Of a DNA stretch of 25,310 bases, positions 22,853-25,135 are shown piece after piece (positions within the stretch are counted from its first letter, which is position 1; each line of letters opens with the position of its first letter). The stretch spans positions 1 through 25,310 of the IMG/VR virus record IMGVR_UViG_3300033566_000008; one strand, written 5' to 3'. The position numbers and the translations under genes are program-made. The notes under the pieces are model-generated. The model made no database searches. It saw only the letters and a list, made by a program, of their open reading frames with translations, and was not told the DNA's origin. Source of the DNA: a virus (lineage: Duplodnaviria; Caudoviricetes).

Positions 22853-23034
22853 CTTCGCCCGCCATCGAAGCCCGCGAGAAGGCGTATCTGATGCTCACGG
22901 ACGATGCGAAGTTCTACAAGCTGCCGCCTCCGCTTGATCGCTCGTGGCTGTACGGCATCAAGTACGAGTCAGGGGAGGCGCTGGCGCTTGCTCGAACCAT
23001 CTGCCCGCACATCTGGAAGGGTGACGACGAATGA
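22849..23034 (+). CDS. Small hypothetical protein inserted in the lysis cassette
   Basis: ATGA overlaps at both ends (endolysin stop and Rz start); 61 aa MTSPAIEARE...KGDDE. Confidence 0.6.
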   Translation: MTSPAIEAREKAYLMLTDDAKFYKLPPPLDRSWLYGIKYESGEALALARTICPHIWKGDDE

Positions 23035-23444
23035 GCATCTACGCCAAGGCCGTCGCCATCCTGTTGGCAATCGTTCTATTGGTGGGCCTTGGCTTCGGCG
23101 TTGGCACCAGGCTCAAGCAAGGCGAGTGGGATGCCGATGTGCTGGCCCGCGAACAGGCCGCAAAGATCAAGGCCAAAGCCCAGGCCAAAGAAACCGCAGA
23201 GCAAAGGAAACAGCATGCAGATGAGATCCGCACTATCAACGCTCGCCTTGCTGATGCTCTTGAGCGGCTGCGCAAGCGCCCCGAGAGGATGCCCGAGCCT
23301 GCCCGCGCCGCCTGCCAAGGTGCCACTGGGGCCGAGCTTTCAGGACCAGATGCAGGTGTTCTTGTCCGGCTCGCAGCCCGAGCCGATGAACTCCGAGCAG
23401 CCCTCGGAGAGTGCCAAGCCTGGGCCGAAACAGTGAGCCGGTGA
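23031..23444 (+). CDS. Rz: Inner-membrane spanin (i-spanin)
   Basis: N-terminal TM helix, coiled coil, ends ADELRAALGECQAW. Confidence 0.85.
   Translation: MSIYAKAVAILLAIVLLVGLGFGVGTRLKQGEWDADVLAREQAAKIKAKAQAKETAEQRKQHADEIRTINARLADALERLRKRPERMPEPARAACQGATGAELSGPDAGVLVRLAARADELRAALGECQAWAETVSR
23215..23436 (+). CDS. Rz1: Outer-membrane lipoprotein spanin (o-spanin) embedded in Rz in the +1 frame
   Basis: AAGGA RBS; signal peptide MQMRSALSTLALLMLLSG-C with lipobox; Pro-rich mature part. The start may be 23221. Confidence 0.85.
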   Translation: MQMRSALSTLALLMLLSGCASAPRGCPSLPAPPAKVPLGPSFQDQMQVFLSGSQPEPMNSEQPSESAKPGPKQ

Positions 23445-23445
23445 T

Positions 23446-23862
23446 TGGTGAGGGCGGCCGGGAGCCCCCAACCCTGCGCAAACGCTTGACCCTCGAAATG
23501 AAGAGAGCGGACACGACTCGAACGTGTCTCCGGGCACCTGCACTGCTCCAGAATCGAACTGGACCGGGATGACTCTTCGCCATCGCCACCTGGCACTCTC
23601 AGATCTGCGGGCCGGACTTCACAACCGGCTTTCACTCGGACATCGGCTTAGCGGGTGAAAGGCAACGGGACACTACCGAACGCATGTCTTGTTCCGTCGA
23701 GCCTGCGTGTTCAGCACACGCCGCCGCTGATCTGAGAGCCCCGGCATCCACTCGCCGAGAAAGCGCCCATCGGTGCGCCGAAATCTGGACGGACAAAACG
23801 CACCGATGAACTAGCGGGCCCAACCGAGCCCTTCTACAGCCTGCCGCCGTTAGCAGAAGGCG
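23446..23862 (-). ncRNA. Candidate large structured ncRNA with multiple tRNA-like T-arm modules and an ACCA 3' end
   Basis: Dedicated promoter, at least 10 helices, two canonical TTCGANT T-loops on 5-6 bp stems, and G-U pairs that work only on the minus strand; no credible ORF. Confidence 0.75.
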
Positions 23863-23867
23863 CCCCA

Positions 23868-23896
23868 ATTCTACCGCCGTGATGGCGGGAGATCAA
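23868..23896 (-). promoter_or_regulatory. Sigma70-type promoter of the ncRNA
   Basis: TTGATC (23896-23891), 17 nt, TAGAAT (23873-23868). Confidence 0.75.
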
Positions 23897-24134
23897 TCCC
23901 CATCAATTCCCCACCGATCCGCTGCGCCCCGCGTAGAACCTAGATTTCTTGGTGCCCCGGACCGGTAACTTTCCCATAAATCCCGATTATCCCTGTAGGT
24001 AGCGGATTCCCCACCAAACACCATGGTTTGAGCCGTTCACCCTGGGATTTGCCCCGGTTCGGTTGCCGTTCTGGTTCCCGATTTTCCCCATGTTCGCCGT
24101 TAAGATCGCCGCCACTCCCCACGGTTTACCCACG
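23895..24134 (+). repeat. Integrase arm-type binding repeats (consensus WTTCCCCAYN)
   Basis: AATCCCCATC 23895, ATTCCCCACC 23906, ATTCCCCACC 24006, TTTCCCCATG 24083, ACTCCCCACG 24114, TTTACCCACG 24125; both outer pairs have 11-bp spacing. Confidence 0.7.
23950..23965 (-). mobile_element. attP core equal to the 3' end of a tRNA gene (probably tRNA-Leu)
   Basis: The minus strand reads CCGGTCCGGGGCACCA (3' T-stem, acceptor strand, ACCA) without the rest of a tRNA; it lies upstream of int and between arm repeats. Confidence 0.75.
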
Positions 24135-24136
24135 GA

Positions 24137-25135
24137 ATGGCCTACATCTACCAACTTGACAGCGGACTTTGGCGCGCTCAGATCGCCAAGAAGGGCCATC
24201 CCAGGGAGTCCAAAACATTCGCCACCAAGACGGCGGCCAGGACGTGGGCGACGAGCCGGGAGGCGGAGATAGACGGCACGCGGCGCGGAGCGGTGGTGCG
24301 GAAGACTGTAGCCGATGCACTAGACCGCTACGCTTTGGAGGTGTCGCCCACCAAGAAGGGCGCGCGTCTTGAGCTTTTGAGGCTGGCCGCCTTCAAGCGC
24401 GAAAAGTGGGCGCAGAAGTGGTTGAAGGACATCGACGCCCCGGACTTCAGCGCGTGGCGGGATGAGCGCTTGCAGGCCGTCACCAAGGGCTCAGTGCAGC
24501 GGGATTTCAACCTCATCAAGGCGGTGATGAACCGGGCGCGCAAGGAGTGGCGCTGGCTGACTCACGATCCGATGCTGGGGGTGGTCATGCCCGGGGACAA
24601 CGAACCGCGCACGCGCCGTGTGCTGCCGTCCGAGGTGCGCAAGATGTGCCGGGCCCTCGGGTACGCTGGCGGGAACCGAATCGATACCAAGATGCAGGAA
24701 CTGGCTTTTGCCTTCCTGGTGGGCCTGCACACGGCCATGAGGCAAGGGGAAATCCTGCGGCTGACGGCCGAAGACATCGACCTGGCCAGGCGGACGATTC
24801 ACATCGCCGAGCAGAAGAACGGCAAGAAGCAGGACATTCCGATCACCAAGCCAGCGGCTCGGCTCCTGGCGAAGCGCCTTGAGGTGGTGAAGGAGGGCGC
24901 CTTGTTCACGATCACCAGCGCCAGCGCGGATGCCCTGTGGCGCAAGTGCAGGGAGCGGGCAGGCATCGAGGGGTTGAACTTCCACGACTCCCGGGCCGAG
25001 TGCCTGACGCGCCTTGCATCGGTGCGCCGCGTTGATGTGATGACGCTGGTGCGCATCAGCAGGCACAGCGACATCAAGATCCTCATCGAATCGTATTACC
25101 GGGAGGGCGCCGCCTCTATTGCCCAGCGGCTCTGA
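24137..25135 (+). CDS. int: Tyrosine recombinase / phage integrase
   Basis: N-terminal arm-binding domain (WRAQI...SKTF.TK..A..W); catalytic TAMRQGE, KNG, FHDSR, SRHSD and YY. Confidence 0.93.
   Translation: MAYIYQLDSGLWRAQIAKKGHPRESKTFATKTAARTWATSREAEIDGTRRGAVVRKTVADALDRYALEVSPTKKGARLELLRLAAFKREKWAQKWLKDIDAPDFSAWRDERLQAVTKGSVQRDFNLIKAVMNRARKEWRWLTHDPMLGVVMPGDNEPRTRRVLPSEVRKMCRALGYAGGNRIDTKMQELAFAFLVGLHTAMRQGEILRLTAEDIDLARRTIHIAEQKNGKKQDIPITKPAARLLAKRLEVVKEGALFTITSASADALWRKCRERAGIEGLNFHDSRAECLTRLASVRRVDVMTLVRISRHSDIKILIESYYREGAASIAQRL

Follow-up and report, generated by a model that had tools for sequence, protein, structure and literature searches.

What purpose is served by two canonical tRNA T-arms lying side by side in a non-coding part of a phage genome? 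The window analysed here is a virus record of 25.3 kb (25,310 nucleotides in full; about 58% complete by contig completeness estimate). On its minus strand, as the initial annotation had pointed out, T-arm 1 (23563-23547) has five Watson-Crick pairs and the loop UUCGAUU, T-arm 2 (23528-23510) has six pairs and the loop UUCGAGU, the two are 18 nt apart, and the sequence has no CCA after either. With a T-arm defined as G-UUCRANY-C on a stem of at least 5 pairs, these are the sole T-arms in the window, the canonical feature (G53-C61, UUCRANY loop) being present twice. The twin T-arms are real and not a product of chance: 1000 dinucleotide shuffles averaged 0.062 T-arms each and none of them (0/1000) had a pair within 60 nt, and a search for the twin pattern gave 0/100 in shuffled sequences. 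Both loops also fit what we take to be the substrate consensus of TrmA and TruB.

Genomic setting of the T-arms

Comparison with PHROGs identified terminase, portal, major head protein, endolysin, Rz-like spanin and integrase genes in the window, and the phage, which carries an RNA array of ~420 nt, is temperate. A non-coding gap separates the Rz stop (23444) from the integrase start (24137). The Rz-like spanin gene (23031-23444, plus strand) converges on the 3' end of the array, while the tyrosine integrase gene (24137-25135, plus strand) is divergent from the array promoter. This sigma-70-like promoter, TTGATC-17-TAGAAT (23896-23868, minus strand), has a predicted start near 23862; one was found against a shuffle mean of 0.3, and TAGAAT is equally placed before the related arrays L127/L245, L128, L235, L237 and L241. 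The 381 nt behind the promoter fold better than 100/100 shuffles (z -2.95). Neither Rfam (at the gathering threshold and also with E up to 10) nor ARAGORN returned a match in the array gap, and no GOLLD, ROOL or other Rfam 15 family reached the gathering threshold in the window or its relatives.

The whole accessory cassette occupies 23445-23921. A near-identical phage contig from sequencing run X1 lacks the array and has 26 other letters instead; because this contig, whose two flanks are each 95-99% alike, runs directly from 23444 to 23922, the cassette is optional. The 3' end of the array lies two bases from the Rz stop (23444-23446), and the minus strand has no terminator-like site before one inside Rz (23233-23215); transcripts that read through would therefore be antisense to the spanin genes. 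A stretch resembling a tRNA 3' end (23966-23950, minus strand, CACCA end) lies between the array promoter and the integrase gene and is a putative attP core; its best match among tRNA 3' ends is only 13/17 (a tRNA-Leu end).

A two-T-arm module with a predicted tRNA-shaped fold

The initial annotation had placed the T-arms in a 79-nt domain closed by GAAGAG/CUCUUC. These bounds proved too short, as the unit runs from 23600 to 23499 on the minus strand and includes 22 more bases at its 5' side. The two hexamers are complementary, and they pair at P ~0.8 only in the 79-nt cut; P is 0.00 in the 105-nt module, in a 156-nt piece comprising modules B and D and in the 418-nt RNA, and in the longer contexts GAAGAG is part of a 6-bp hairpin (P 0.98-1.0). 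The closing helix of the unit, here called module B, is GAGAGU(G)/(C)GCUCUC, with its first six pairs at P 0.95-0.99 in the module. When closings were forced in the uncut precursor, GAAGAG/CUCUUC came to ~7 kcal/mol above the free minimum and the module B cloverleaf to 11-13 kcal/mol, and the former helix may exist there as a minor form.

Module B (23600-23499, minus strand) is predicted to be a 102-nt tRNA-shaped RNA with two T-arms, the cloverleaf being its MFE structure. The 5' strand of an acceptor-like helix (23600-23594) pairs with 23509-23503 over 7 bp, or over 6 bp with an unpaired C. The annotation had described a domain with no D arm, but a GG-bearing D-like hairpin lies 5' of its start and a second lies between the T-arms. 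The first (23594-23585) has 3 bp and the loop AGGU in the MFE form, and an alternative (23594-23579; 4 bp, 8-nt UGG loop) has P 0.0. At the anticodon-arm position there is a 6-bp hairpin (23584-23568, P 0.98-1.0) whose 5-nt GAAGA loop stands in place of a 7-nt anticodon loop. T-arm 1 (stem P 0.5-0.7) falls within a variable arm closed by CCGG/CCGG (23567-23564 with 23533-23530), a closing found in the MFE and absent from the centroid, and it is followed by the second D-like hairpin (23546-23534; 3 bp, GG in the loop), a predicted T-loop partner. T-arm 2 (P 0.82-0.99) is stacked on the acceptor-like helix, and the 3' acceptor strand (23509-23499) ends in a UUCA tail without CCA. The predicted cloverleaf thus includes an acceptor/T stack of 12-13 bp. 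The folding z-score, at -1.7 to -1.8, is modest, and the centroid lacks the weaker helices; two further points against the cloverleaf are its cost in the uncut 418-nt RNA, given above, and D-like hairpins of only 3 bp.

Where a tRNA gene has 7/5 stems and a 7-nt anticodon loop, module B has 7/6 or 6/6 stems and a 5-nt loop, and neither ARAGORN nor RF00005 matched it. The segment is also not collinear with any of 220 phage tRNAs: the longest match is 15 nt and covers a T-arm only, so the possibility that it aligns to decayed ordinary tRNA genes, which the annotation had named as one of two refutations, was not borne out.

The presence of two GG-bearing loops bears on one of the two readings first offered for this domain, an interdigitated double T-loop platform that binds the tRNA elbow in the manner of T-box Stem I, RNase P and the L1 stalk. 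Such a platform has two T-loop pentamers per domain, as does module B, in which they are 36 nt apart. According to PMC3664808 (the comparison also draws on PMC4810234 and PMC4919913), the core residues of interdigitated modules are AG..A and UG..A, and packing and platform pairs consist almost entirely of purines, whereas both loops here have the core UU-C-G-A. The central loop residue, which takes part in the platform pair and is a purine in known modules (RNase P table), is C in both. Furthermore, the loops of a platform bind the elbow, while the UUCGA loops of module B, carried on tRNA-type stems, resemble the elbow itself; GG-loop partners are at hand for both T-loops; there is no specifier-like or antiterminator element; and Rfam gave no T-box or RNase P match. 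We consider this reading very improbable.

Organization of the array and exchange of its modules

Module B is one exchangeable module of the ~420-nt array between Rz and the integrase gene. Transcription in the minus direction would pass first through a 5' hairpin region (23862-23739), which is itself exchangeable, as a contig from run X4 skips 23757-23860 and relatives carry a GGAAAGAC hairpin in its place. The GGAAAGAC loop-motif hairpin is seen in the 5' part of arrays L127, L128, L131, L235, L237, L238 and L241, and at L131 it belongs to a different structured RNA, with one T-arm, that occupies the same slot. Module A (23738-23596) is a multibranch domain with a 10-bp plus 4-bp closing helix (P 0.99-1.0 in the 418-nt fold) that is common to L128, L235 and L237. 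The last unit, module D (23494-23446), is a 49-nt three-way junction with a 6-bp acceptor-like helix and an encoded ACCA end.

These units follow a common grammar, in which a shared promoter box is followed by long-helix modules (A) and then by helix-framed modules (B and D). All 12 of the B and D modules examined close with a helix of 5-7 bp starting GA and followed by a short tail; the closing helices show compensatory changes, and two of the 12, including module D of the window, end in ACCA. NNCA-type tails recur with closing helices at each module end. Where A precedes B or D (7/7 cases), 5-8 nt of the next module's 5' strand is shared with the closing helix of A, compared with an overlap of only 3 nt after module C of L237. 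In the window, the 3' arm of the A helix includes the 5' acceptor strand of module B, and because of this sharing the A helix and the helix of the next module are mutually exclusive. In the uncut 418-nt window RNA it is the A helix that wins (P 1.0).

This last result would suit an array that works as one large uncut RNA, with the A helix permanently closed and the T-arms serving as internal tertiary docking sites or as part of a switch between helix and cloverleaf. T-loops serve as tertiary docking sites in other large structured RNAs. The good folding of the 381-nt region, the lower cost of the forced GAAGAG/CUCUUC closing in the full-length RNA, and the occurrence of a single T-arm inside module A of L235 and of another in the different RNA at the L131 slot are all consistent with such a role. 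Free swapping of modules between phages, however, fits independent units better than one cooperative fold, as do closing helices with NNCA-type tails at each module end, and we regard an uncut working RNA as improbable.

The exchange of modules is evident in contigs assembled from sequencing runs, which switch partner at module edges. Runs X3 and X4 keep B and D behind another upstream part, run X6 keeps module A with another B and other neighbours, and run X5 keeps only D. Four of eight runs, from four studies, yielded contigs with an unchanged T-arm domain and no listed change in 23495-23600, although these four are near-identical by selection, having been found by exact words. Coverage of module B in run X8 was considered as evidence of expression and set aside, because X8 was only guessed to be RNA and had been found with this stretch. 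No RNA run was among the sequencing runs listed for it.

Related phages differ in what they carry at the position of module B. The annotation had suggested that conservation of the UUCGANU loops be checked across homologues; the B slot of L128, L237 and L238 is without T-arms (0/3), which indicates that the twin T-arms belong to this module and not to the array family. At L238 (2555-3158, minus strand), the B-slot module keeps a 7-bp closing helix and an ACCA tail around a gene encoding a 181-aa GIY-YIG/NUMOD3 protein; this gene starts within a hairpin that bears a TATAAT box.

Module D, by comparison, is constant. It is the last unit in seven related arrays (L235, L237, L238, L240, L241, L242 and L245), and at L242 it stands alone behind a TACAAT box, before the integrase gene. 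Its covariation was assessed over eight sequences: 99% of cells are paired, four pairs have changed on both sides, and 0/500 shuffles equalled the score, with the qualification that part of the invariance is by construction, being due to the fixed letters of the search pattern. The family ranges from 45 to 80 nt, with compensatory changes and no Rfam match. Variants among reads change its UUUG loop to UUCG and a U-G pair to C-G. In the 58% complete contig, the longest match complementary to module D is 10 nt. A related Rz gene was found at 11 loci (10 contigs), two of these loci have a related RNA behind it, and pattern scans added six more contigs with parts of the array family.

The constancy of module D gives weight to a different explanation of the T-arms, namely that they are processing and stability marks. 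By recruiting RNase P and 3' trimming, the tRNA-like unit would cause the array to be divided into small RNAs, of which the neighbours would be the working products. Chief among these would be module D, as a possible antisense RNA of the C4/CI-like kind or one antisense to the converging lysis cassette. Module D is the covarying unit, can stand alone and ends in ACCA in the window, whereas B-slot modules differ widely with the closing helix kept. RNase P, moreover, measures the T-stem/acceptor stack (PMC4810234), and the predicted 12-13 bp stack of module B is of the length that it measures. One T-arm would nevertheless be enough for a cutting mark, which leaves the second arm and the second GG hairpin unexplained, and free-standing RNAs of the same layout occur outside such arrays. 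There is also no C4-type match in Rfam, and no complementary stretch of more than 13 nt elsewhere in the window, a contig ~58% complete. On balance we think it somewhat unlikely that the T-arms are processing marks.

Searches for homologues and a wider class of twin-T-arm loci

Searches with blastn of the cassette gave no real match among 50,697 phage records (seven chance 22-mers) or among 72,556 plasmids. With a strict pattern of twin T-loops plus 3' end, 16 stretches were found in viruses, and the 14 matches listed all lacked T-stems; the pattern also found two stretches in genomes, with no blastn match to the cassette at E < 0.3. In metagenomes, the module A pattern found 58 stretches in 17 groups, one of them homologous (L168, the same as L235), and the module D pattern found 15 stretches, seven of them real. 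Because the phage, plasmid, genome-pattern, metagenome-pattern and related-record searches turned up no diverged homologue for module B of the window, its helices are without support from covariation. In the literature searched, neither a two-T-arm tRNA mimic nor this array is described, though supplements and subscription papers may hold one.

The architecture of module B is not confined to the window. A scan for two T-loops 22-32 nt apart in 7 of the 64 parts of IMG/VR found 126 viral stretches, corresponding to ~1200 in all of IMG/VR, and after weak stems and duplicate linkers had been dropped 90 of 127 loci were left (the window plus the 126). At 48 of these 90, T-arm 1 ends a tRNA of its own and the second arm belongs to a duplicated or nested 3' half. 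At 15, including the window, T-arm 2 closes an acceptor helix over T-arm 1, for which the chance rate is 5% per locus (231/4500). The other 27 are of neither type. Several arrangements were seen among individual loci. L019, L020, L036, L047, L054, L085 and L099 have a complete tRNA and then a 3' half-like tRNA from the anticodon loop, and look as though whole tRNAs sat inside the anticodon loop of another, outer tRNA; in L006, L027, L040 and L117 an outer acceptor closes over an inner insert bearing a T-arm; two further groups, L024, L055, L126, L072 and L100 on the one hand and L005, L104, L119 and L123 on the other, have a UGGU loop between the arms and no detected acceptor helix; and in L055 and L064 three T-arms follow one another.

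The large group of duplicated or nested 3' halves raises the question of whether module B is itself neutral debris, composed of tRNA 3' halves, duplicated or decayed, that integration and recombination left behind beside attP. It lies ~400 nt from the possible att core, and its two halves share a start of 10-11 nt. Against this, both T-stems are fully Watson-Crick and both loops canonical, and module B lies between exact, recombining edges and is unchanged in contigs of four studies. An origin as debris is quite unlikely in view of the perfect stems, the absence of a separate acceptor partner for T-arm 1 and the lack of any alignment longer than 15 nt with the 220 tRNAs.

A GG-loop hairpin lies between the arms at 10 of the 15 loci with an acceptor helix over T-arm 1 (4.8 expected), at 16 of the 48 (12.6 expected) and at 11 of the 27 (7.8 expected), a moderate enrichment measured with a shuffle that keeps base composition only. 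WGGY anywhere in the linker does not separate the classes (27/46 with 14.0 expected, against 18/40 with 10.6 expected). In a partial scan, nine other phage loci had the order D-X-T-D-T inside one acceptor helix. Module B has the order of this class: acceptor, D-like arm, hairpin, T-arm, GG-loop hairpin, T-arm, acceptor. The clearest members (L015, L041, L073, L082, L097 and L078; 111-118 nt) begin with a 7-bp acceptor and a normal D-arm, after which come an anticodon-like arm that varies, a T-arm, a UGG hairpin and a T-arm. Extrapolation would put the class at some 90-130 stretches in IMG/VR. Streptococcus phages Javan577 and Javan584 carry L015 without annotation, as does phi5218 at 83%; L015 and phi5218 have T-D-T cores that are told apart by few letters, one of them inside T-loop 1, and their anticodon-like arms have diverged. 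In L015 (149-735), a prophage of streptococcal type, the two-T-arm RNA has a GOLLD RNA immediately on one side and a tRNA on the other, and Rfam calls this RNA a 113-nt tRNA.

A model built from nine phage RNAs, none of them from the window (R3), returned 23600-23499 exactly at 33.3 bits, with the next best match in the window at 9.2, and placed both window T-loops in register with the T-loops of the model. As ordinary tRNAs reach 23-40 bits with this model (training members, 50-113), the score supports a shared layout and the ends of the module and not common descent. R3 did not match any of five related phage records. For a model made from two sequences (R1), the best window match was 23637-23501, with other ends and a score of 21 bits that is within the ordinary-tRNA range. 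In alignment A7, which was fitted to its structure, nine matches came from 11 sources (L114 and L044 were below the cut) and T-arm 1 of L009 is misplaced, so that its pair counts lean towards the model.

Proposed function

Of the two readings in the initial annotation, tandem elbow mimicry agrees with the anatomy of the module and with an architecture that recurs in phages, while the cores of the loops speak against the interdigitated tRNA-binding platform. Module B is most likely an undescribed two-elbow tRNA mimic. More fully, we tentatively favour the reading that the two T-arms form one 102-nt tRNA-shaped module with two elbows, likely cut from the array and likely a non-decoding decoy. 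In the predicted structure, the acceptor-like helix would stack on T-arm 2 and T-arm 1 would sit with a GG hairpin in the variable arm, so placed that each T-loop could dock a GG-bearing D-like loop in a contact of the C56-G19 type, giving two flat elbows per molecule. The helix of module A would sequester the acceptor strand pending cleavage of the precursor by host nucleases, and the released RNA would then be modified like a tRNA and bind host proteins that read the elbow or the T-arm. By analogy with known mimics, such an RNA is likely to be a decoy for host tRNA-handling proteins rather than a platform for tRNA binding; the most plausible targets would be tRNA-directed toxins, nucleases and modifying enzymes active in anti-phage defence or stress.

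A broader proposal, which we put forward as possible but doubtful, is that phages of many hosts encode two-elbow tRNA mimics as bivalent decoys against tRNA-targeting defence, a class that tRNA finders would have missed or misread, and that in this phage the mimic is part of a mix-and-match array in which an anti-acceptor helix keeps units unfolded until they are cut. To our knowledge, the bacterial tRNA mimics described so far (tmRNA, Y RNA and irregular tRNAs) carry one elbow. If the proposed structure is correct, a single acceptor frame holding two T-arms together with two D-like loops would constitute a new mimic design. RNAs of this kind, at 100-120 nt, are small enough for direct structure work and are present, unannotated, in prophages of cultured hosts. 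Should they titrate tRNA-directed toxins or enzymes, they would bear on why phages carry non-decoding RNAs shaped like tRNA. The array itself is a family absent from Rfam with naturally shuffled modules, so each unit can be tested alone.

Comparison with known systems

The structured phage RNAs GOLLD and ROOL are several hundred nucleotides long (bioRxiv 10.1101/2024.12.08.627333 and PMC5737381). The array differs from them, as far as these sources describe, in being smaller, modular and shuffled where they have one conserved fold, and it has no Rfam match. A link to GOLLD does exist, in that class member L015 lies right behind a GOLLD RNA. RNase P excises the small antisense RNAs C4 of P1 and P7 and CI of P4 from precursors by way of a tRNA-like shape. 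In size and shape, module D is similar to them; they are without twin T-arms, however, and the array has no Rfam match, nor was a target found in the window.

The tRNA-like domain of tmRNA also has a frame of acceptor and T-arm without an anticodon and tolerates large inserts, a property that recalls the B module of L238. Module B differs from it in having no tag frame, no CCA and no tmRNA match with ARAGORN or Rfam. Allo-tRNAs and irregular tRNA polycistrons comprise non-canonical cloverleaves, some of them serving outside translation and some with five-stem junctions (PMC5389517). As described there and in the review PMC7609411, allo-tRNAs have 8/4 or 9/3 acceptor/T stems and anticodon loops, unlike module B with its 7/6 stems (or 6/6 with a bulge), 5-nt loop and two T-arms.

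Bacterial and phage Y RNAs such as YrlA and Yrn1 are non-decoding RNAs with tRNA-like T and D arms, in which the T arm may lie 5' of the D-like arm, and they are known substrates of TruB, DusA, RNase P and the CCA enzyme (PMC4201824). A TROVE/Ro60 gene was found in none of five related phage records (0/5), three of them at least 90% complete, although a Ro60 of the host is possible, and the Rfam Y RNA models did not match the window. As described in PMC4201824, a Y RNA combines one T arm with a Ro60-binding stem, whereas module B has two T-arms; by analogy, we suggest that module B may work in the manner of Y RNAs and other non-decoding tRNA mimics.
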